A stretch of 33,994 bases of DNA from a virus (Duplodnaviria > Heunggongvirae > Uroviricota > Caudoviricetes): the IMG/VR virus record IMGVR_UViG_2778261668_000001; one strand, written 5' to 3'. How positions within the stretch are numbered: the stretch's first letter is position 1; every line of letters begins with the position of its first letter. This document shows positions 1,878 through 33,994 of this stretch, one piece after another. A program made the translations under genes and the position numbers. The notes below the pieces were generated by a model. The model had not been told where the DNA came from, did not search any database, and saw only the letters and a program-made list of their open reading frames with translations.

Positions 1878-4800
1878 TATGCAAGCCTCACAATATAGTT
1901 AAATGCGATGTTTTTGACGGTGTTTTCCGCGTTACCAACAGCGTTAACGGTGATGGTGTGTCCATGTGCACCCAGCGCCACAGTGTGTGCATGGGCACCA
2001 ATACCGACAGTATGTGCGTGTGCCCCTGCAGATGCGGCAGTACCAGACAATGAGTGGGTATGTGCTCCATCTGATGATGTCTTCCCTGATATACGGCTCG
2101 TACCTGAGCCAGATTCCTGTGGTACAACTGGTACGTTTGTGACTGAAACCTGGGTATAACCGTTAGGAAAGAGTGCAGTTCTATTAGAATTCGCATATGG
2201 TCCAGAACTCTGGTGTTGGTGCCCACCTGCACTATTTGCTGTCCCGCTAATACTATGTGTATGCGCCCCGGTGTTATTCGTGGACTTAGTACCATAATCA
2301 AACGAACTGGTTGTTTTCGTCCCCAAATCCGTACTGGATGCACTGGCACTGTGGGTATGCGATTTAATACCATCCTGTTCCTGAGACAATACAGCGCGAC
2401 CACTGGCGGGTTTGCCCTTAATTGTCCATCCACGCAGATCAGGGATCACACCAGATGGGTAAGCGGTTGCAAGTTTCGGATATGCTGATTTATCAAAAGT
2501 CTGCCCCTGCATCAGAGCATAACCAGATGGAATTGTGTCTGATGGCCACGGTATCGGTGCCCCTGCAGGATAAAGCTCTGAAGGAGGATAAGCCGTTGTG
2601 TAAAGCTGATCCCATAGCGACCAGTTTGCGTCGGTAGCATCCCGTCGTGAACGAATAAATGCCGGAGCATGGGCACCGCTTGTACCACTCCAGCCGATAA
2701 GCAATTCACCCTCTCCTGCAGCATTCGCACCTTTCATATGAAGCACATTGCCGTAAGTCGTGGGGTAGCCATTTTTATACGCTTCATACATCTGAACGCC
2801 TGGGGTGCCTTGTGTATTGCCACTTAATGCGGCCACCATACCTCTGGACACTAAGGTATTAATGTTGATGTCACCTGAGCCATCAAACTTAACACCATTA
2901 ATATTTACTGGCGTTTGAAGCTTCGTAGCCGTTGAAGCATTACCCTTAATGCCGCCATTAACGGTAAGCGACCCGGTTATTGTGCCTCCTGTTAATTTCA
3001 AAAAGAGTGCATCAATCCATCCAGCGAAACCCGGTTTATTGATATACAAGTTGCCATCATTGGCAAATATGCCACCACCTGGAGTTCTTAATGGTTGCGC
3101 CATATTTGCTAAAGTCAATGCACCGGACATTTGCCCCCCAGACAGAGGCAAGGCACCAATAAACTGATGCGAGCAGTAATAACCACGCCCCTGGTTAAAA
3201 TCAATTACAGTACGGGCATTTATACATTCAGTAGCAGGTTCTGTTACACCCCACTTATATGTAGTTTGACCTGCTGTATAATCAGTTGTCGGTACAATGA
3301 CACTTAACCCTTCCTCAGCAAATACTTTAATCGGAAAAGCTCTGGCCTCAACATAAAATACACTGCAAACATCATCATCTTTAGTGCTTGCGATAATTGA
3401 GTGAATAGACCGTTCCTCAGACTGATATGCCCAGAAATAACCCGCAGCATATGATCCTCTGTCCGACCAACCACCACTTGTAACGATGCCATTAAATTCG
3501 CAGTTATTCATGGGATCATTACCAGCATTCTGTCTTGTTGATATGACCACCCGGCTGGCAAGTTCATCGTTATATCCGGCTGAACGGCGCAATACAATCG
3601 GATACCATTTCCCGTCAACAACATTCGCTGGCGCAGAAAAGGAATACTTACGCATCCCCCTTTTTTGATCAACTTCACCTTTGCTGTAGACGTTAATGTT
3701 GCTCAGGAACCTATCTTTATCAGGTATATCTGCGCCGTTCTGGTCTTTCCGAAGGCGTGTTTCAGCGTTGTCGTATGCAGACTTGACCGCTTTCGGTGTT
3801 GCTGCAAGCGTCTCAGATTCGCTGCTGGTCTCACTGCTGAGCTGTACTATCCCCTTTTTCGTCGTGCTCGCATCCTCAAGCGCCACGGCAGATGCAACAT
3901 CCTCTGCCCGTTTTGCAGCTGTCTCGGCGCGCGTTGCCGCGGATTCTGCCGCATTTTTGCTCTGAGCTGCCTCCGTCGCACTTCCTGCCGCCTCTGTCGC
4001 CTTCGTGGATGCCGTTGACGCACTCTCTCCCGCCGCTGACGCCTGTCTGGTCGCCTCATCTTTTGAAGCAGACGCAGATGATGCCGATGACGCCGCCGAA
4101 CTGGCTGACGATGCGGCTGCCGTTTTTGAGGATTCTGCACTGGTTTCCGACGCTTTCGCGTTCGTCTCGGATGTCTTCGCTGCGGAAGCAGACCTCGCTG
4201 CTGCGCTGGCCTGTTCAGTGGCTTCAGTAACCTTCGTTGTAGCTGTTGAAGCGGACGATGCGGCGCTTTCTGCCGATTTCCCGGCGGCGGTGGCACTGGC
4301 GGCTGCCTCCTCTGCCTTAATGGATGCTTCACGGGCCGATGATGCAGCTACTGTCTCAGAGCCTGCCGCAGCTGAGGCGCTCTGTTCCGCTGCCGTTTCA
4401 GAAGACTTAGCATTCGTCTCTGACGTTTTTGCCGCCTTCGCGGAATTTCCTGCCGCCGTTGCCGAGGAGGCTGCACTGCTGGCGCTTGTGGAGGCGTTCG
4501 TTTCTGATGATTTTGCCGCCTCTTTGGAGGCAGCCGCATCTCTGGCTGAAGTGGCGGCTTCTGACGCTTTCGTCGTCGCAGTGGATGCAGAAGTGGCTGC
4601 TGATTGTTGTGACGCTGCCGCATTCGTTTCTGACGTTTTCGCGGCACCGGCACTGGTGGCCGCCGCGCTTTTTGAGGACTCTGCAGCGGCAGCACTTTTT
4701 GACGCTTCCGTGGCCTTTGTTGATGCCGTTCCTGCGCTGGAAGATGCTGACTGAGCAGACGATGCGGCCTGTTCGGCGGACGTGCTGGCTGCGCGTGCTG

Positions 4801-5251
4801 AGCCTGCGGCATCAGTCGCATGGGTTGCCGCCTCACTGGCAGATGTGCTGGCATCGCTGGCTGACTTCTTCGCGGCTGCCGTGTTCTGTGCCACTACGGA
4901 CGCGTTACGCGCCACCTCTTCCACCATCAGTTCAAAACGGCGCAGTGCCTCCGGACGGGCATCATCCTCCGTCATGGCACCGAGAAAATCATTCAGCGTC
5001 CCCGGCTTTGAATCCTCATACACGGTGATGGTCCCGGCATGTGACGGCGGGAATCCTTCCACCATCAGAATAACGCTGTACTGACCGTACTCAACGTCCA
5101 TGCTGTAACGCCCGGCTTCATCCGGATTTTCTGAGGCCAGCGTGTTCACCACGACCGTGGTACTGTTACGTTTTGCCTTCAGCTGAATGGTGCAGTTCTG
5201 TACCGGTTTCCCTGTTCCGTCTTTCAGTACACCTGAAATCTTTACTGCCAT
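1877..5251 (-). CDS. stf: Side tail fiber protein (Stf; StfR-like), about 1124 aa
   Basis: N-terminus [26 protein letters not shown] and C-terminus [18 protein letters not shown] match the Rac StfR type; long Ala/Ser/Thr-rich repeat block; His-rich HxH tip motifs ([22 protein letters not shown]). Likely ATG at 5249-5251; the ORF-track start at 5257 is GTG. Confidence 0.9.
3850..4880 (-). repeat. In-frame low-complexity Ala/Ser/Thr-rich repeat region of stf (SETNA/KTSET-type units)
   Basis: Reiterated nucleotide and peptide motifs; the long spurious ORFs on other frames and the opposite strand here are artefacts of this GC-rich repeat. Confidence 0.6.
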
Positions 5252-17577: not shown

Positions 17578-17848
17578 GATGTTACCGTAATATGTGAGTA
17601 TCCATCGACTAGACACTAAGCAAAAAAGCTCCCGAAGGAGCCTTCATTTTCACTTTCTTAAATCTAACGACAGACGGCTAACATTTAAGTATTGTGAAAT
17701 ATTATCAAATGTAATCATCATTGATTTACAAAAGATACATTTTGCCCCGAAAGGATTCCTGTCAGAAACATCAAAAGATGATGTTCTATACTGAGAACCA
17801 TGGCAACACGGGCATCTAAAGTGAATATGGTTTGTAATATTTTCTACC

Positions 17849-18061
17849 TCAAAGTGCCACTACATGAACAGCCGCGGGGCCTTTAGGTCCGTTCTCAATA
17901 CCAAATTCGACTTGCTGATTCTCAGTTAACGTTTTGAAATCGTTGCTCTGAATAGCTGAGAAATGGACAAACACATCTTTGCTACCATCTTTCGGCGTGA
18001 TGAAACCAAAACCTTTTTCAGGGTTAAACCATTTCACTAAACCAGTCATTTTGTTAGACAT
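17849..18061 (-). CDS. cspI: Cold-shock protein, CspA family (CspI-like)
   Basis: [38 protein letters not shown] with RNP1/RNP2 motifs; long AT-rich leader at 18062-18424, typical of csp genes. Confidence 0.9.
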
Positions 18062-18424
18062 TATTATTACCTTTTGAAGAAGTTAGCCCTTGGGCAGAAT
18101 GGTCCGAAAAAAAATATCAGAGAGAAAAACCAACAAGGAAATCTCAAGAGGTACAAATAATAAAATTATAACAATGACTGCTTCAGATAATTTTGTAACA
18201 AACCAGAACACCATTAACGCATGATTAACCAACCATAGCAAGGATTACTTTTGTAAAGAAAAACACACGAATGAAACAATAGCTTTATTTATTAATAAAA
18301 CGTGTCATTCTGTCTAATGACCTTTTATCTTACCCTTAAGATTTCAAGGATTTTGACTCATGGAAGAGTCCTTTTTATTTAAATTTCACATTCAGCGCTA
18401 AAAATAATCCGATTTAATATTAAT

Positions 18425-19452
<1,028 letters not shown>

Positions 19453-19565
19453 GGATATTTATCAGGATTTATCGGCTTCAAATCCCCGGATATGTTAAAT
19501 CTTACCTCACCAGTGATGGGCACTGGCGGGAGGAGGATGTCAATCTGATAAACACAGAGGTGACT

Positions 19566-19826
19566 ATGGATTACACAAATCTACCAAAACAAACTTTTGC
19601 TGATTTAATCGCACTCAGGCAAGCAGTCGTAGCTCTAATCAACTTGTTGCCGGAGAAGGAAAAGGAATTAGTTAAAGCGCTTCTTAACAGAACTGCCGCC
19701 GATTTTTCATCATATCCACTGACAGATGACCTTGCGGACCTTCCTGAATTAATTGCAGCGTCCGCCATTAAGCTTACTGAAGAGATTTACCCTCCTCAAA
19801 AATCTTCACAAAATTCCTGCGAGTAA
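19566..19826 (+). CDS. Hypothetical 86-aa protein antisense to the late operon
   Basis: SD AGAGG 5 nt before ATG at 19566 (ORF-track start at 19560 is GTG); helical-looking sequence; own terminator 20 nt downstream; 3' end overlaps the convergent 183-aa gene. Confidence 0.4.
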   Translation: MDYTNLPKQTFADLIALRQAVVALINLLPEKEKELVKALLNRTAADFSSYPLTDDLADLPELIAASAIKLTEEIYPPQKSSQNSCE

Positions 19827-21016: not shown

Positions 21017-21297
21017 AATATTGTGGTACTTTTTGTGGGAGTCATCCACTTACGCACTTTGTTTTGCTATGCCAGCAGTTAGCTTCTGCTGTAAAACTAT
21101 TCATGCAGCAAACCTGCACTTCACCACAATGGTTAGCATACTTTTCCTGATTAAGTTATTGCCAAATATGCTGGCCATTGTTTCATGTATTGGACCTCCT
21201 TACTATTTATTAAAGAGATCCAATATTCACCACTCTGTCTGTATCTCCACTCAGGCATCAGCCTTCTTCGTTATCGTATACAGACAAACTATGAATT

Positions 21298-21513
21298 TTA
21301 ATCAGTAATTATGACATTTGCTGCTGCAGGACCTTTAGCACCACTCTCTACAGAGAAGGTAACCTTTTGACCTTCAAATAAGGTTCGAAAATTATCATTC
21401 TGAATCGCAGAAAAATGCACAAACACATCTTTACTACCATCAACAGGAGAAATAAAGCCGAAACCTTTATCAGCGTTAAACCATTTTACTAAACCAGTCA
21501 TTTTATTTGACAT
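21298..21513 (-). CDS. cspB: Cold-shock protein CspB-like
   Basis: [71 protein letters not shown]. Confidence 0.9.
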
Positions 21514-21813
21514 TCTACATTCCTTAACTTGAGCCTTTCGGCATAAATGGCTTGTATAACAGAAACGACTTCGTACTTAATTGGAGAGACTCAAAGAAGG
21601 AATAAGTGAATAACACCTGAAATGAGAACTGCTTTAGTAAACTACTTCGTATATCGTCTGTTCTTCAAACCGACGCAATCATTAACGCATAGTTGAACAT
21701 ATGAAGCAATGTTTATTTTAGACATCCAGCCATCTTCAACCCCATCAAAAAACTATAGCTTTCTTCAGGAACGTGTGTATAGTGCGCCCAGTTATCAGTA
21801 TTAAGGAATTTTT

Positions 21814-27841: not shown

Positions 27842-28389
27842 GCGTTAGTTTCTCCACAGTCACGACACGCCACGGCGCCCGGAGCTGCACACTCGCGGGC
27901 GTCACTACTTTCTGAAACGCAAAAGATTTTGTAGACCAGTGCTGCATGCTCCTGCAGCTTCGAAATTGAGAGGTACAGCTCATCGTTAATTGCTGTCTTC
28001 TCATGCGGTTCCACTACACCATCTTCAATTGCTGAACGAATCTGTTTTGAATAACTGCCGATCTGTTCAATGACCTCCAGCAGGCGTTGGTTGATATCGG
28101 CGTTGTCCACATCCTCGATGTCAGGAAGAGACACAAAGACGCCATTTGCAGACTGCGCCACAGCGTCAGCAATGAAGTGAGTTCCACCAGCACGTTGCAA
28201 AATCATTGCCCATCCCAGCGGGAAAATCTGATCGCCATCGGCACGAAGGCGGTTAAATAATGCGTTCTCTGTTACATCCAGCCAGTCAGCAGCTTCAGCG
28301 TACCCCCCCGGCAACGCTGCGATAGTTTTTCTGACAGCTTTCACGTACCACTCAGGCTGTTTTTCTACTTTCCAGTGATGCTTACCCAC
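27838..28389 (-). CDS. Early regulatory protein in the cII/YdaT position (183 aa)
   Basis: Directly downstream of cro with overlapping stop/start; C-terminal Cys cluster ([17 protein letters not shown]). Family guess only. Confidence 0.45.
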
Positions 28390-28642
28390 GGTTCACCTCC
28401 TGTTCCTGTGGTTTAAACCCATTCTGGTTTTGGCTAGATTGAAAACGTGCCGGATAAAGAATCTGCATTTCGCTGACTTCACCCTTAAAAAAATTGGCTA
28501 AACGTTCTGCAAGCTCGATAGATGGAATCTGCTCCAGCCTCTCAATACGACTCAACGTCGCTGGATTGACTTGAACACCCGCAGCAACATGCTGCAAAGT
28601 GAAACCATGCGCCTTACGCACATTTCGTAATGGTGATTGCAT
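28382..28642 (-). CDS. cro: Cro-like HTH repressor (XRE family)
   Basis: 86 aa with HTH (FTLQHVAAGVQVNPATLSRIERLEQIPSIELAERLANFF); divergent from cI across the operator region. Confidence 0.75.
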   Translation of the reverse strand: MQSPLRNVRKAHGFTLQHVAAGVQVNPATLSRIERLEQIPSIELAERLANFFKGEVSEMQILYPARFQSSQNQNGFKPQEQEVNRG

Positions 28643-28739
28643 ACGCCCTCCAAATATTGCGCGTTATGCATGTTATTTCACGCAATTATTTTGCGCAAGT
28701 TGATTTGCTTATCACGCAATAAAGAAATGTAATAAACGC
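28643..28739. promoter_or_regulatory. OR-like operator/promoter region between cro and cI
   Basis: Repeated half-sites TTGCG / CGCAA (e.g. TTGCTTATCACGCAA at 28705-28719), consistent with TTGC-N7-GCAA operators. Confidence 0.6.
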
Positions 28740-29432
28740 ATGAACATAGGAAACCGAGTCAGACAACTTCGCCAAGCGAAGAACATGAAAATCGCCGATC
28801 TCGCTGAAGCGATAGGAGTAGATGCGGCGAACATCTCGCGCTTAGAAACGGGTAAGCAAAAACAATTTACCGAACAAACACTGAGTAATATTGCCAAGAG
28901 CTTAGGTGTTGATATTGCTGATCTCTTTACCTCTGCCCACAAAAGTAATACTGTATATAAAAACAGTAATAATGAGGATGTTGCGCAGGTGAAGGATGTG
29001 TTCCGTATTGAAATGCTGGATATCAGTGCCAGTGCGGGAAATGGCCTTATCCAGGGCGGTGATGTCATTGATGTGATTCATGCCATCGAATACAGAACTG
29101 ATAATGCTGTATCAATGTTCGGCGGACGACCAGCCAATCACATCAAAGTTATCAACGTTCGTGGGGACAGTATGTGTCCAACCATTGAGCCAGGAGATCT
29201 CATCTTCGTTGATGTCAGCATCAATCAGTTTGATGGTGATGGTATATATGTCTTTGGTTTTGATGACAAAATATACGTTAAAAGACTTCAAATGATTCCT
29301 GACAAACTGCTGGTGATTTCTGATAACCAGATTTACCGTGAATGGGGAATTACTAGCGAAAACGAACACCGATTCATGGTCTTTGGAAAGGTCTTAATCA
29401 GTCAGTCGCAAACCCTTAAGAGACATAATTAA
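28740..29432 (+). CDS. cI: CI-type prophage repressor (HTH plus LexA-like S24 peptidase domain)
   Basis: N-terminal HTH (VRQLRQAKNMKIADLAEAIGVDAANISRLETGK); C-terminal Ser-Lys dyad context (VRGDSMCPTIEPGDLIFVD ... IYVKRL). Confidence 0.9.
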   Translation: MNIGNRVRQLRQAKNMKIADLAEAIGVDAANISRLETGKQKQFTEQTLSNIAKSLGVDIADLFTSAHKSNTVYKNSNNEDVAQVKDVFRIEMLDISASAGNGLIQGGDVIDVIHAIEYRTDNAVSMFGGRPANHIKVINVRGDSMCPTIEPGDLIFVDVSINQFDGDGIYVFGFDDKIYVKRLQMIPDKLLVISDNQIYREWGITSENEHRFMVFGKVLISQSQTLKRHN

Positions 29433-29450
29433 CCTCAATATCCCATCCAT

Positions 29451-29476
29451 CGGCCACCGAAAGGTGGCTTTTTATT
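29451..29476 (+). terminator. Intrinsic terminator after cI
   Basis: GCCACC-gaaa-GGTGGC (GNRA loop) followed by TTTTTATT. Confidence 0.7.
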
Positions 29477-29486
29477 ACCTATAAAT

Positions 29487-29537
29487 TTGCATATCTCGCA
29501 AATATCACTTGCATATCTCGCAATTTAATTTTATCTT
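29487..29537 (+). promoter_or_regulatory. OL-like tandem operators overlapping a candidate pL promoter
   Basis: Two copies of TTGCATATCTCGCAA (29487-29501, 29509-29523), 22 bp apart; -35 TTGCAT (29509-29514) and -10 TATCTT (29532-29537) with 17-nt spacer. Confidence 0.55.
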
Positions 29538-29771
29538 TTGTTCCAGACCAACTACAGGATTACAACAAAATCTAGTTGCAACACGGTGCATGTGTCGTAA
29601 GCAGTCAGTAAATGTCAAAAACGAACAGGCAGGACGCCCACGAAGTAGCCGCCTGGGGCATATGAAGTCCAGGATGATTCGTTAGCAACAAAAAAGCGCC
29701 CTACAGGACGCTTAGCTCTTTAACAATCTGGTCCCCATCAACAAGTAACTGATAACTTGAGGAGGTGTGAA

Positions 29772-29978
29772 ATGCACAAAACAGAACCAAAAATCGTCGC
29801 GCCCGGATACACAAATGAGGAAATTTACGAGTGGATGGCAAAGAAGCTGGCAGCTATAAACCAGCTTCGTGAAGTGCTGTCTTATCGACAGGAAACAATA
29901 GACTCCTTAAAAAAACTGGATCAGGAAATCACGGTTTTATCACAGGATGCTACTTTAGATATTGTGCAGACAAATTAG
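29772..29978 (+). CDS. Hypothetical 68-aa protein, first gene of the putative pL transcript
   Basis: Strong SD GAGGAGGT 4 nt before ATG at 29772; 3' end overlaps the convergent 144-aa gene. Not Arg-rich, so not N-like. Confidence 0.5.
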   Translation: MHKTEPKIVAPGYTNEEIYEWMAKKLAAINQLREVLSYRQETIDSLKKLDQEITVLSQDATLDIVQTN

Positions 29979-30384
29979 GATCCCATTCATTTTCGTCAAA
30001 ATCATCAAAGTGATGAATTTGTGATCTCCAGTCACGATAATCTAAAAATTTCTGGGCGGTTACGCTTATTTTATCAAGTGTGAGTTCATCCTGAATTGAA
30101 AGAAGAAGTTCATCAAATTTCATCTCATTAATCTGTTTTGGCATCCAGTGATGCTTCATCAGAATAAGGTGAACCAGAGCCTTTTTCCCATTCAACTGAT
30201 TATAGGGAGTGCCGAATTTCTTCCGGTGCTCATGTAAGACAAGGTCCAGAAGAGTAAGTAATGTTGCTCTTGATTCAACTTTGCTTATTTCGACTGATGA
30301 CACTACCCCACTGATTTCAATGCCCCGATACTTTCCAACATTTTCACAGTGGGATTTGTACAGCGTATAGATATTACCGGACAT
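29950..30384 (-). CDS. Hypothetical 144-aa protein, convergent to the pL gene
   Basis: ORF starting MSGNIYTLYKSH with SD AAGGA; no recognised motif; occupies the cI-adjacent position where exclusion genes are often found. Confidence 0.55.
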   Translation of the reverse strand: MSGNIYTLYKSHCENVGKYRGIEISGVVSSVEISKVESRATLLTLLDLVLHEHRKKFGTPYNQLNGKKALVHLILMKHHWMPKQINEMKFDELLLSIQDELTLDKISVTAQKFLDYRDWRSQIHHFDDFDENEWDPNLSAQYLK

Positions 30385-30479
30385 TTCTTTTCCTTTTGCG
30401 TTGTTGGGGATAACCAGATTAACCGAATCCTTGTTGTTGGGGAATAACCAGGTCCACCTCGCCTGATGTGGCTAAAAGC

Positions 30480-30900
30480 AGGCACATAACAGCTAAGTAT
30501 TTTTAACCAGAGAGAATCCTTAGCGTTGTGGTGAATGCGGCTCAGCGCACGCGGGTTAAGGTTGAGGCTGACAGTCGACCTTCTGTGGATACCCACCCGT
30601 CTGGTGTGCAACCTTCGCCAGGCACCGGGAGGCACCCGGCACCACAACTTTATGCTGTGTGTAGTCCTGGAGGTACCAGTTTGTACCCTTGCTTCCGGCT
30701 GGTACCGTCCTTTTTACAAAACAGAGAAGAGCATCACCGGACGACGGGCTCATAACCCAATCCATCCGGGCGGCTGCCACCGCAGGTGTTCTTCTCTGTT
30801 TTGTGGAGAAACTAACCGCCCCTACGGGGGCATTTATGGAAATGTAATTAACTCAATAATCGCCGGACGGTGAGGGCTTCCTTTTACCCGAATTCAGCGC
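30480..30900 (+). ncRNA. Candidate structured RNA or leader (uncharacterised), GC-rich and non-coding
   Basis: No protein-like frame. Nested helices: 9-bp long-range pairing 30525-30533/30640-30648; 8-bp stems at 30558-30565/30575-30582 and 30672-30679/30699-30706; about 25-bp helix 30711-30735/30785-30809 with G.U pairs valid only on the plus strand. Confidence 0.3.
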
Positions 30901-30928: not shown

Positions 30929-31465
30929 ATGTCATTTATTAAAACTTTTTCCGGGAAGCATTTTTATTATGACAGGATAAATAAAGACGACATCGTTATT
31001 AACGATATCGCGGTTTCCCTTTCAAATATCTGTCGCTTTGCAGGACATCTTTCACACTTCTACAGTGTCGCCCAACATGCGGTGCTTTGCAGCCAGCTGG
31101 TGCCGCAGGAATTTGCTTTTGAAGCTTTAATGCATGATGCAACAGAAGCATATTGCCAGGACATCCCCGCACCACTGAAACAACTTCTTCCTGACTATAA
31201 ACGGATGGAAGAAAAAATAGACGCCGTAATCCGTGAGAAATACGGGTTACCTCCTGTTATGAGCACGCCAGTGAAATATGCCGATCTCATTATGCTGGCA
31301 ACCGAACGCCGCGATCTCGGGCTTGATGATGGCTCTTTCTGGCCTGTACTGGAAGGTATCCCGGCAACAGAGATGTTCAAAGTTATTCCACTGGCTCCGA
31401 GCCATGCCTACGGGATGTTTATGGAGCGCTTTAACGAGTTATCGGAGTTACGCACATGTGCATGA
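30929..31465 (+). CDS. HD-domain phosphohydrolase (YfdR-like)
   Basis: HD motifs (H..H ... HD ... D: HFYSVAQHAVL, MHDATEAY, D); SD GGAGAA before ATG at 30929 (ORF-track start at 30902 is GTG). Confidence 0.8.
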   Translation: MSFIKTFSGKHFYYDRINKDDIVINDIAVSLSNICRFAGHLSHFYSVAQHAVLCSQLVPQEFAFEALMHDATEAYCQDIPAPLKQLLPDYKRMEEKIDAVIREKYGLPPVMSTPVKYADLIMLATERRDLGLDDGSFWPVLEGIPATEMFKVIPLAPSHAYGMFMERFNELSELRTCA

Positions 31466-31499
31466 GTCTTTCAACCGAACAATCACTGGAGGGGCAGCA

Positions 31500-31694
31500 A
31501 TGAACAACTTAATGACAACAAAACAAGTCGCCGAATTCTGTGGCGTTTCAATATCGACGGTGCTTCGCTGGAACAGCGTAAACAGGAGGACTGGCCAGAA
31601 ATACAGACCAGATTTTCCAGATCCTGATATTAAATCCTGCCCAAATAAATGGGCATCACGCAAGATATATAGGTTTGCTGGAGTAATAGAGTAA
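31500..31694 (+). CDS. Small HTH DNA-binding protein, AlpA/Xis-like (candidate excisionase)
   Basis: MNNLMTTKQVAEFCGVSISTVLRWN... HTH typical of AlpA/excisionase; SD GGAGG; about 1 kb from the integrase. Confidence 0.6.
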   Translation: MNNLMTTKQVAEFCGVSISTVLRWNSVNRRTGQKYRPDFPDPDIKSCPNKWASRKIYRFAGVIE

Positions 31695-32127
31695 CAAACA
31701 TTAGCTCAAATGAGAGCTGGCACAGATATGGCACAGACCAAACAAATCTGACTGTCTGCTCTGTGCCAGGAGCAGCCATTGCTAAGTCCATCCTGTATTG
31801 TGCAGGTCAGCTCGTTTTTAAAGAGTCCGGCCATCATCTTACTGGTACAGACACCATATACTTTGTGACGGTCAGGCTACATATGCACAACTCAACTTAT
31901 TCATCTATTTTTTGCTTTAGCATGTCAGTGTTGCTTTCTCGTCGGCGGGTGAGCGGTGACCTGACCTGTCGATAAAGGAACGTAGCACGTTTTATGCAAC
32001 ACCCGCATGCGGCAGAAAATTATTGCCGAACGTTTACCCCTGTCAACAAGCTTTACTTTTTGAGGCGCGCCAGCCCGCGAGGAAAACAATCTGAACATCA
32101 AATAATTAATGACACAAGAAATACGAT

Positions 32128-32154
32128 TAAAGATTTTTTTGTGCATGCCGATAG
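32128..32154 (+). promoter_or_regulatory. sigma28 (FliA)-type promoter upstream of flxA
   Basis: TAAAG-N15-GCCGATAG matches the class 3 flagellar consensus TAAA-N15-GCCGATAA; about 25 nt upstream of the flxA start. Confidence 0.6.
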
Positions 32155-32177
32155 TGCTTTTTTAAAAGGAGAAATCT

Positions 32178-32510
32178 ATGTCTGTCACAATTCAGGGGAA
32201 TACCTCAACCGTTATTTCAAACAACTCCGCCCCGGAAGGAACATCAGAAATAGCCAAAATCACAAGACAAATTCAGGTGCTGACTGAAAAGCTTGGGAAA
32301 ATCTCATCGGAAGAGGGGATGACGACACAGCAGAAAAAAGAAATGGCTGCATTGGTACAGAAGCAAATTGAAAGCCTCAGGGCTCAACTGGAGCAGTTGT
32401 TAAGGCAGCAGGCAGAGAAAAAGAATAAAGACGCGACAGTTCAGCCTGATAAAAAAGAAGAGAAAAAAGACGATACAAATACCGCTGGCACCATTGATAT
32501 TTACGTCTAA
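32178..32510 (+). CDS. flxA: FlxA-like protein (FliA-regulated, 110 aa)
   Basis: MSVTIQGNTSTVISNNSAPEGTSEIAKITRQIQVLTEKLGK... recalled as Qin FlxA; supported by the upstream sigma28 promoter. Confidence 0.65.
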   Translation: MSVTIQGNTSTVISNNSAPEGTSEIAKITRQIQVLTEKLGKISSEEGMTTQQKKEMAALVQKQIESLRAQLEQLLRQQAEKKNKDATVQPDKKEEKKDDTNTAGTIDIYV

Positions 32511-32524
32511 GTGACAGCCGTATT

Positions 32525-32548
32525 GTGGCCCTCATCGGGCCACTTTTC
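32525..32548 (+). terminator. Intrinsic terminator after flxA
   Basis: GTGGCCC-tcatc-GGGCCAC followed by TTTT. Confidence 0.6.
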
Positions 32549-32770
32549 GCCATCAGCCTTTTCTTTAAAGACATATTATCTTTGTATCATTTCTGATAGT
32601 TAACATTACAAGATATAAGTAATGGACGCACTCCCAATTAGTCTATTTAAATCGCCACGAGTTTAACTGACAACCCATGATCAATTATGAATTGCAACTA
32701 TTTCTGTAGTCACTTTTGTGGGGACAGTCCACAAAACTGCCAACTTCCGCTTCTTGCTCAAAGCGGACTG

Positions 32771-33994
32771 TCAGTTGCTGTCTGAACCAGTACAAGTAAC
32801 GATCGATTCAACTCTCTCCCACCATGCCTGGTAAGCTTTACGCTGTTCTTCTAAATAATCGCTCTTGTCATAAACCTGCCATACCCCTGGCAGTTTATGA
32901 CCGAGCATTATTTCTGCAATATGAGGCGCAGTAAGATCAGAAAAGTTTGTTCGTGCTGTTCGTCTCAAATCATGAAGAGACCAATGGGGGAATTGATACC
33001 CTAAACGCCGCCATGCGTACTGCATTAAATTGTAAGGCAGCGACTGCAATGATGTCCGACCAACGGGTTCCCTACATCCTTCCTTAGTAAAAAGCATATC
33101 GGAACCATTGTTCATAGAGATAACGTACTTTATAAGCTCTTCAACCGGTTCAATAATGGGACGCTTTAGCGGTTCACCTGTTATATCCCCTGTCTTATGT
33201 CGTTCTGGCGGTACAGTCCATACCTTATTAATGAAATCAAAATCATCCACCCTAGCGGTAATTAGCTCTGAACTACGGCAGCCAAAATGCAGCAATAGTT
33301 TAATGAAGGCCCGGTATTTAGGAACCATTCGAGAACCATCGATCGCAGCATAAAGGATTTTAATTTCATCATGTGTCAGAAACCGTTTCTTCTGACCTTT
33401 ACGGATATCCATATCTTTACCCGTGATATCCGACAGCGGGCGAGTTTCAATAAGCTTTCTCTTATACGCCCAGACGTGGGCCTGCTTTGCGTTAATTAGC
33501 AATCGGTCTGCTATTGCAGGAGTCTTAGTGCTAAGAGGCTCCAGGACTTCTAACCAATCATGCAATGTAGCTGCATCGTGAGGGATATTCCCGATTTTAG
33601 AGAACAGGTGCAGCTCAAACGAGCGGAGTATCTGTTCAGAACCTTTTTTATTTTTTACACAATATGCTTCATACCAAGCACGGATCACAGACTCTACCGT
33701 CATGGCTTCAGTAGCTTTTCGTTTTTCAGCCTGCTTGACCAATCGTGGATTGCGGTTTGACTCGAGTTCACCACGAAGACGGATAACTTCTTCTCTGGCC
33801 TCTTTTAGTCCAGTTGCCGGGTAAGTTCCGATATCAAGACGCTCACCTTTCCCCGCCCACTGATAACGATATTGGAACACTACGCGACCTTTCGGTGATA
33901 CTCTAACAGACAGACCATCACGATCGGATTTAACCAAAACCTTATCACGTTCCTTTCCAACGACTGAACGCAACCACGCATCAGACAGCGCCAT
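32771..33994 (-). CDS. int: Tyrosine integrase (P4-like, N-terminal arm-binding domain); start codon is the last base of the window
   Basis: 407 aa; N-terminal DUF4102-like domain (MALSDAWLRSV...GLSVRVSPKGRVVFQYRYQWAGKGERLDIGTYP); C-terminal catalytic residues (R...HDLRRT...Y). Confidence 0.9.
   Translation of the reverse strand: MALSDAWLRSVVGKERDKVLVKSDRDGLSVRVSPKGRVVFQYRYQWAGKGERLDIGTYPATGLKEAREEVIRLRGELESNRNPRLVKQAEKRKATEAMTVESVIRAWYEAYCVKNKKGSEQILRSFELHLFSKIGNIPHDAATLHDWLEVLEPLSTKTPAIADRLLINAKQAHVWAYKRKLIETRPLSDITGKDMDIRKGQKKRFLTHDEIKILYAAIDGSRMVPKYRAFIKLLLHFGCRSSELITARVDDFDFINKVWTVPPERHKTGDITGEPLKRPIIEPVEELIKYVISMNNGSDMLFTKEGCREPVGRTSLQSLPYNLMQYAWRRLGYQFPHWSLHDLRRTARTNFSDLTAPHIAEIMLGHKLPGVWQVYDKSDYLEEQRKAYQAWWERVESIVTCTGSDSN

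Follow-up and report, generated by a model that had tools for sequence, protein, structure and literature searches.

A convergent pair of overlapping genes lies in the immunity region of an E. coli prophage. The DNA analysed here (the window) comprises the 33,994 nucleotides (nt) of IMG/VR virus record IMGVR_UViG_2778261668_000001 (Caudoviricetes), an SfV/SfII/e14-type lambdoid prophage of Escherichia coli. Within it, a small gene of 68 amino acids (aa) on the plus strand (29772-29978) converges on a large gene of 144 aa on the minus strand (29950-30384), and the 3' ends of the two coding sequences share 29 nt (29950-29978, both strands). The small gene is preceded by the Shine-Dalgarno sequence AGGAGGT (29760-29766), 5 nt before its ATG. 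An earlier note, made from the sequence alone, had described the two reading frames, their overlap and the near-perfect Shine-Dalgarno sequence, all of which we confirm; the interval it gave for the pair (29690-30384) does contain both genes, the small one itself starting at 29772. Sequence comparisons indicate that the pair is a conserved, mobile two-gene module.

The small gene heads the early-left operon, and the large gene runs against it. The strong intrinsic terminator of the repressor gene cI (29452-29469, plus strand, from the terminator scan; folding energy -13.2 kcal/mol, z = -3.6) and two operators (29487-29501 and 29509-29523) precede the pair, so that the rexAB-equivalent position assigned to it by the earlier note was mistaken. 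The operator motif, TTGC-N7-GCAA, starts at 28705 (the right operator, OR), 29487 and 29509, which account for three of its four exact copies in the window; the latter two are the left operators (OL) and, together with an overlapping putative early-left promoter (PL), occupy 29487-29537 on the plus strand. The candidate PL (TTGCAT-17-TATCTT, 29509-29537) was assigned by eye and scores below the threshold of the promoter scan. In SfV, PhiR29_1 and e14, a clear TTGACA-17-ATAATG promoter directly follows the cI terminator, and the window operators occupy the equivalent place. Because the cI terminator and OL/PL come first, the small gene is, as read from the DNA, the first open reading frame (ORF) of the PL transcript, in an N-like position, and the large gene would be antisense to that transcript. 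The SfV-type phages compared here have no N gene at the position of the small gene. In phage lambda, rexAB lies between cI and OL, where its two co-directional genes are co-transcribed with cI; RexB is a multi-pass membrane protein. The window pair resembles rexAB as accessory cargo adjoining a lambdoid prophage repressor gene, but it follows the cI terminator and OL/PL, has a convergent layout, encodes two hydrophilic proteins and shows no RexA or RexB homology.

We regard both ORFs as genuine genes rather than chance reading frames, because they match protein families, 78 of 80 IMG/VR loci have an intact small ORF and convergent homologues of the small gene occur in distant genera. The large protein belongs to the ECs1072 family: residues 4-144 match positions 2-142 of the 142 in the NCBIfam profile NF033230 (“ECs1072 family phage-associated protein”, a hypothetical equivalog) with 157.8 bits (E = 1.7e-46), against a curated cut-off of 70 bits, and an identical protein carries this annotation in RefSeq. 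It also matches phrog_5286, a PHROG without function, along its full length (1-144 of 144; 1.5e-90). A profile search yielded 76 representatives of the large protein at 50% clustering, almost all of them stand-alone proteins of about 145-155 aa, with named members in Yersinia, Pectobacterium, Proteus, Morganella and Pantoea. Six residues are near-invariant in this family (L50, R54, L64, G66, A69 and H72), and W134 is invariant. The AlphaFold2 model of the large protein is all-helical, with a predicted local distance difference test (pLDDT) score of 78 and a predicted template modelling score of 0.77; we predict a soluble, all-helical protein with an orphan fold. It has no match in Pfam, including the SieB family (PF14163). 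Two candidate activities were rejected, namely a HEPN nuclease (Foldseek hits at noise level; Rx4-6H motif not present) and DNA binding through a DnaA domain IV (1% probability; no DNA-binding domain detected).

The small protein matches phrog_1744, likewise without function, along its full length (1-68 of 68; 3.7e-34), and has no relative in Pfam or the PDB. Its AlphaFold2 model (pLDDT 86) has 14 extended N-terminal residues followed by a single helix (residues 15-67), and its N terminus carries the motif EPxIxxPGYTxEEIxEW(M/L); P6 and W21 are conserved. Both proteins are hydrophilic and mildly acidic (grand average of hydropathy -0.47 and -0.50). The earlier note had recognised no motif in either protein, and this stands for Pfam and PADLOC. 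The functional literature, searched under accession numbers and family names, yielded a single microarray table: ECs1072 is on the growth-transition list of strain Sakai at -2.13, and thus gives a signal in uninduced cultures (PMC2241611).

Pairing of the two genes is conserved across genera. They co-occur in complete E. coli genomes (416 and 421 of 5426), and E. albertii has a large-gene homologue with a convergent, 3'-overlapping small homologue. At locus L010, a large protein of 52% identity has a convergent partner with an overlap of 44 nt, while a divergent homologous pair in IMG/VR (L194) again overlaps by 29 nt. Overlaps in the other lineages span 44-317 nt, among them Pantoea (62 nt), Serratia (74 nt; large protein of 35% identity) and both Yersinia and Pectobacterium (194 nt). 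In Proteus, one large gene is accompanied by two small paralogues, and in Yersinia a SieB-family gene adjoins the module. A related-locus search with a narrower alignment returned near-identical loci only. The distant small partners were recognised with a hidden Markov model (HMM) built from three clear members with one iteration and searched against 2213 ORFs, where noise began at 0.29; the Pantoea and Serratia partners scored 4.5e-5 to 1e-3 at iteration 1, and those of Yersinia and Pectobacterium 4e-5 to 1.5e-4 at iteration 2. The family's namesake is also paired. In prophage Sp4 of O157 Sakai (L223), ECs1072 (ECs_5703, 19361-19816, minus strand) is antisense within the operon of the early-right promoter (PR), and converges on an unannotated sense ORF (19168-19677, plus strand) that has the small-protein motif and an HMM E value of 6e-6. 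Several records, among them SfIV and this Sakai locus, lack an annotation of the small gene. The pairing thus extends from large proteins of 100% identity to homologues of about 22%, and it occurs in Escherichia, Serratia, Yersinia, Pectobacterium, Proteus and Pantoea. A small gene on its own turned up neither in the 5426 E. coli genomes nor in the IMG/VR loci.

The orientation of the pair is constant in different operons. All paired lineages found here have the small gene pointing along the lytic operon and the large gene opposing it, with overlapping 3' ends. This holds in the PL-left operon of the window, E. albertii, Yersinia, Pectobacterium and Proteus; in the PR operon, between cII and O, of Sakai Sp4; in a P2-type early operon, between cox and gpA, of Pantoea; and in a late operon, directly upstream of holin and endolysin, of Serratia. 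That the rule holds in four contexts favours a functional link between the two genes and an expression that depends on whether the phage is lysogenic or lytic. What appears to be new here, from these comparisons, is a pairing conserved to about 22% identity, its occurrence in four operon contexts and its constant orientation.

The pair occupies a hotspot of interchangeable cargo. We compared the window by blastn with SfV, SfII, SfIV, PhiR29_1, mEp460 and ST64B. On the left, the hotspot is bordered by a 67-nt PL-leader block (29617-29683, plus strand), which is 97-98% identical in SfV, SfIV and PhiR29_1 and 87-88% identical in mEp460 and ST64B. This block likewise precedes the small gene of Yersinia and Pectobacterium and ymfJ of e14; in SfV, PhiR29_1 and e14 it forms the transcribed leader of the promoter that follows the cI terminator. 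On the right, the border is a conserved non-coding block of 376 nt (30454-30829), kept in SfV, SfII, mEp460 and ST64B. The cargo between the two blocks varies by phage, with 61 clusters of downstream cargo in 104 usable IMG/VR loci bearing the leader block. PhiR29_1 has one different minus-strand gene there, and shares with the window both 29617-29731, including terminator and boxA (described below), and 30400-30829, which suggests that cargo is exchanged within a regulatory framework that stays in use.

In many cargos of the hotspot, a larger minus-strand gene faces a small plus-strand gene in convergent orientation. In SfV (L003 4095-4554), orf33 and an 81-aa ORF overlap by 83 nt; in SfII (L004 3350-3751), a 68-aa ORF and SfII_36 overlap by 39 nt; and in e14 (L102 5498-6085), sense ymfJ and antisense ymfI overlap by 63 nt, with the same leader and the same element upstream of the antisense gene. 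The cargo pairs are mutually unrelated (all-against-all BLASTP), and the antisense cargos include a SieB-family protein (77.3 bits). Cargo of such diversity, including a BssS-like gene, would also be expected if the window held an ordinary lysogenic-conversion moron next to an unrelated early gene with tightly packed ends, and the wide range of overlap lengths (29 to about 317 nt) and the existence of one solo large gene agree with that. However, the two genes keep their pairing, orientation and overlap at identities as low as about 22%, in four contexts and through transfer between lambdoid and P2-like phages. This persistence is hard to explain without functional coupling, and we consider it very unlikely that the two genes are unrelated neighbours.

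The transcript of the large gene is predicted to run across the whole small gene. The terminator scan places the intrinsic terminator of the large gene at 29688-29713 (minus strand), with its stem at 29694-29713 and its U-run at 29688-29693, upstream of the small gene. The hairpin, AAGCGTCC-TGTA-GGGCGCTT, has eight pairs, including one G.U, and is followed by TTTTGTTGCT. The earlier note had placed a candidate minus-strand terminator at about 29690-29712; a hairpin does lie beyond the small gene, and we correct the stem. The hairpin has a folding energy of -14.1 kcal/mol as minus-strand RNA and of only -8.0 kcal/mol as plus-strand RNA, with a modest energy z-score (-1.78). In E. albertii (L009), the stem is kept by G.U wobbles that pair solely in the minus-strand RNA, and L010 has an identical stem with another loop. 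Scanning and folding gave no convincing plus-strand terminator after the stop codon of the small gene. This arrangement is that of an excludon, in which the terminator of one gene lies beyond its oppositely oriented neighbour and forces the transcripts to overlap.

An exact rrn-type boxA (GCTCTTTAACAA, 29715-29726, plus strand) closely follows the hairpin on its 3' side; it belongs to the small-gene leader and precedes the gene by about 45 nt. It is the sole exact copy in the window, and it accompanies the cassette in PhiR29_1, E. albertii and L010. This boxA may help PL transcription to cross a long untranslated antisense stretch.

A conserved, promoter-like element precedes the antisense cargo genes. 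In the window it lies at 30454-30485 (minus strand) and has the aligned form GTGCCTG-N8-CCAC.TCAGGC..GGTGG. The element, also written GTGCCTG-N8-CCACCTCAGGCGG-GGTGGTATCTT, aligns across E. coli, SfV, Serratia, Yersinia, Pectobacterium and Proteus, and it also precedes the antisense cargo of SfV and ymfI of e14. The Proteus version reads TTGCCA-16-TGgTATTCT, like an extended -10 promoter. The spacer of the element is conserved beyond the needs of a promoter.

These elements bear on a further alternative, in which the pair serves the phage's own lysis-lysogeny control and has no exclusion role; the large protein might, for example, damp induction or early-left expression, and the small protein relieve this. 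The location of the pair in the immunity and early regions is consistent with such a role, as are the conserved upstream elements, whose spacer could be an operator, and the exact boxA in the leader, which points to elongation control. Against this, the pair is also found in P2-type early operons and beside the lysis genes of Serratia, while most relatives lack it; it thus behaves as optional cargo rather than core circuitry. Nor was a DNA-binding domain detected, the DnaA domain IV match noted above being negligible. We therefore judge control of the phage's own decision to be distinctly unlikely.

Imperfect inverted repeats bound the cargo. The left arm lies at 29725-29745 and coincides with the swap border relative to PhiR29_1 (29731/30400); the right arm is present in two copies, owing to a 33-nt duplication, in the 5' region of the large gene (30401-30420 and 30430-30443). 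These repeats (AATCTGG.TATCC.CA.CA) sit exactly at the borders of cargo swaps in three cassettes, those of the window and PhiR29_1 and the solo large gene of L008, with coordinates of 3110-3135 and 3664-3689 in L005 and of 4968-4986 and 5548-5566 in L008. Their placement would suit an invertible or transposable switch of which the convergent layout is a by-product. Yet a synthetic inverted junction had no full-length match in any of the 5426 complete E. coli genomes, the cassette contains no recombinase, and the Serratia, Yersinia and Pantoea modules do not have the repeats. This largely refutes the invertible switch, which we regard as extremely improbable.

The closest parallel in layout is ymfJ/ymfI of e14. 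It occupies the same slot, with cI (ymfK), PL, the leader block, a small sense gene, a convergent antisense gene and the upstream element, whereas YmfI and YmfJ are unrelated to the window proteins (BLASTP E > 1). Overlapping transcription and an SOS-induced sense gene are documented for the e14 pair (PMC12288877, PMC11002266), while the window pair is known from sequence. In MG1655, ymfI-ymfJ is listed as a convergent excludon (PMC12288877). During the late SOS response, ymfJ, which is under CI-like control, rises by a log2 of 4.05-4.83 and the YmfJ protein increases, while ymfI rises less and later (at most 1.98) (PMC11002266). Genes downstream of cI in ST64B are induced together with lytic genes, and accessory loci expressed in the lysogen are described as typically lying antisense inside lytic genes (PMC7067206). 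The earlier note had suggested that mutual antisense transcription acts as a switch. This idea gains comparative support from the unit itself, whose convergent, 3'-overlapping layout is conserved, and from the e14 excludon, and we consider it plausible.

Our favoured explanation, held tentatively, is that an accessory gene, presumably expressed in the lysogen, is coupled to an antagonist encoded in the lytic operon, such that the expression of one excludes that of the other. The pair would be a two-gene moron cassette inserted in the PL-operon leader of an SfV/e14-type prophage. The large gene, with its own upstream element and a transcript ending past the small gene, would be the lysogen-phase product. 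The small gene would be silent under bound cI, and made upon prophage induction or infection by a related phage. Strong PL transcription could then shut off the large gene through collision and antisense pairing; conversely, any leaky small-gene message in the lysogen would meet its antisense in the long 3' tail of the large-gene mRNA. Since the two transcription units run through each other, their expression should be mutually exclusive in the manner of an excludon. The small helical protein may in addition bind and neutralise the large one, sparing the phage's own lytic growth. The likeliest activity of the large protein, judged by its context, would be exclusion or abortive infection of other phages; the SieB-family gene among the alternative antisense cargos lends this circumstantial support.

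Several observations weigh against this explanation. Neither protein matches PADLOC-DB v2 at E <= 1, and the fold of the large protein has no informative relative in the PDB or BFVD, so that the case for a defence role is drawn from context. The antisense cargos of the hotspot include a BssS-family protein, and thus the hotspot is not purely for defence. A 7-nt insertion and the 33-nt duplication have shifted the -10 part of the upstream element in the window lineage, and a consensus promoter scan found no sigma-70 promoter for the large gene (nor for the small one); the promoter of the large gene is therefore a putative one. At locus L008, a large-gene homologue of 56% identity has no small partner. 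Finally, the small gene is frameshifted in E. albertii and in some database entries, which suggests that the large protein is tolerated without an intact partner.

These frameshifts map to a run of seven A residues (29909-29915) in the small gene, which is also a canonical A_AAA_AAA heptamer. Database variants with six or eight A residues encode frameshifted small proteins of 61 and 80 aa, and E. albertii has the frame of the eight-A type. Programmed frameshifting at this run was considered and rejected: none of the 78 IMG/VR copies departs from the frame, and L010 conserves the zero-frame C terminus, which suggests that the variants are mutations or sequencing errors. That a solo large gene and frameshifted small genes are tolerated also argues against a classical addiction module with a constitutively toxic large protein.

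The solo large gene raises the possibility of the reverse polarity, in which the small lytic protein is the active effector, possibly toxic or host-directed, and the large protein is a lysogen-expressed immunity factor against leaky or incoming copies, giving a toxin/immunity or kin-phage exclusion system. It is generally known that orphan immunity or antitoxin genes are common and orphan toxins rare; the sole unpaired member found here is a large gene, no small gene was found alone, and Proteus has two small paralogues beside one large gene. Nevertheless, a 53-residue single helix with a short N-terminal motif resembles a binder or inhibitor more than an effector, and intact large genes persist beside frameshifted small genes. 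The small gene is also missing from most related phages, and is therefore dispensable for lytic growth. On balance, we think this reversal of roles unlikely.

An antagonist carried in the lytic operon, as we favour, has precedents in concept among prophage systems. In P22, as Ranade and Poteete reportedly described in 1993, sieB is a lysogen-expressed abortive-infection gene of the early-left region whose action on the phage itself is cancelled by a phage antagonist and an antisense transcript; the antagonist, Esc, is said to be an in-frame internal product of sieB, and sas a small RNA. The sieB/esc/sas system is the closest functional analogy to the window pair, although here the antagonist would be a separate, convergent protein gene. 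SieB is moreover a membrane protein, whereas the large protein is predicted to be soluble and shows no SieB similarity. The sas/sieB switch is itself cited in PMC7067206. BstA/aba, Tha and HepS share the concept of a prophage abortive-infection factor that is kept from blocking its own lytic cycle; they reportedly avoid self-targeting by a DNA element, life-cycle timing or a trigger variant rather than by a convergent small gene. The window proteins have no homology to these systems, no PADLOC match and no Rx4-6H motif.

The pair also differs from known toxin-antitoxin systems. Type I systems such as bsrG/SR4 of SPbeta are convergent and 3'-overlapping, and combine a small hydrophobic toxin peptide with a non-coding antisense antitoxin RNA that controls its partner by pairing. 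The window pair shares the convergent overlap within a prophage, but both of its partners are conserved soluble proteins. It also lacks the co-directional operon of type II systems, the genes being convergent in every lineage examined, and the two proteins match no toxin or antitoxin superfamily or fold.

The pair could belong to a broader class of prophage cassettes. It is possible, if doubtful, that the two genes form an unrecognised prophage exclusion or abortive-infection system with self-immunity, and that they exemplify a general cassette design which recurs with unrelated cargos and can move among PL, PR, P2-early and late operons. Such a design would comprise an antisense lysogen-phase effector, a sense lytic-operon antagonist and common promoter and terminator scaffolding; we suggest, with no greater confidence, that the SfV orf33/81-aa pair, the SfII pair and e14 ymfJ/ymfI are further examples. 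If so, a function could be given to the ECs1072 family, which some 8% of complete E. coli genomes carry (421 of 5426) and which extends throughout the Enterobacterales. It would also explain, by architecture alone, how a prophage effector is switched off once its own phage turns lytic. The underlying genomic rule, a small sense gene converging on an antisense gene within a lytic operon, could be used to mine genomes for state-coupled accessory or defence modules. The design seems to be recurrent within one hotspot, which includes the uncharacterised ymfI/ymfJ of K-12.

On its cI side, the cassette adjoins DNA that closely matches SfII. The window is 99.5% identical to SfII across 28700-29683, where the SfII gene is annotated as cI. 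The cI-type repressor (28740-29432, plus strand), considered here as context for the cassette, has a helix-turn-helix (HTH_3) and an S24 peptidase domain (Pfam Peptidase_S24, 6e-19). It diverges with cro (28382-28642, minus strand) from the operator region, and cro is followed by a cII/YmfL-like gene and then an O-like replication gene.

Part of the conserved right block resembles a small RNA. A segment at 30495-30717 (plus strand) matches the full length of the Rfam model STnc100 (RF02076), with a sub-threshold score of 38.4 bits (E = 2e-6; gathering score 47), and nothing in the cassette locus matches Rfam at gathering thresholds. In ST64B, the non-coding RNA STnc1310, near cI, is reported to be induced along with lytic genes (PMC7067206). 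Four near-consensus DnaA boxes, all on the minus strand, fall within 30405-30810, inside and beside the right block (at 30405, 30467, 30584 and 30802).

Gene content changes beyond the right block. The genes yfdP and yfdQ, which lie between the right block and yfdR in SfV, SfIV and PhiR29_1, are absent from the window (at about 30818-30829). Beyond yfdR (30929-33994), the SfV-type xis/int is replaced by a helix-turn-helix ORF, a FlxA-like ORF (32178-32510) and an oppositely oriented integrase (32771-33994, minus strand). This altered content suggests that the left arm of the prophage is rearranged or abuts another element. Elsewhere in the window, the Rfam matches at gathering threshold are all on the minus strand: IS009 at 1336-1534 (205 bits), and two cspA thermoregulator leaders at 17803-18208 and 21235-21674 (113 and 158 bits, respectively).

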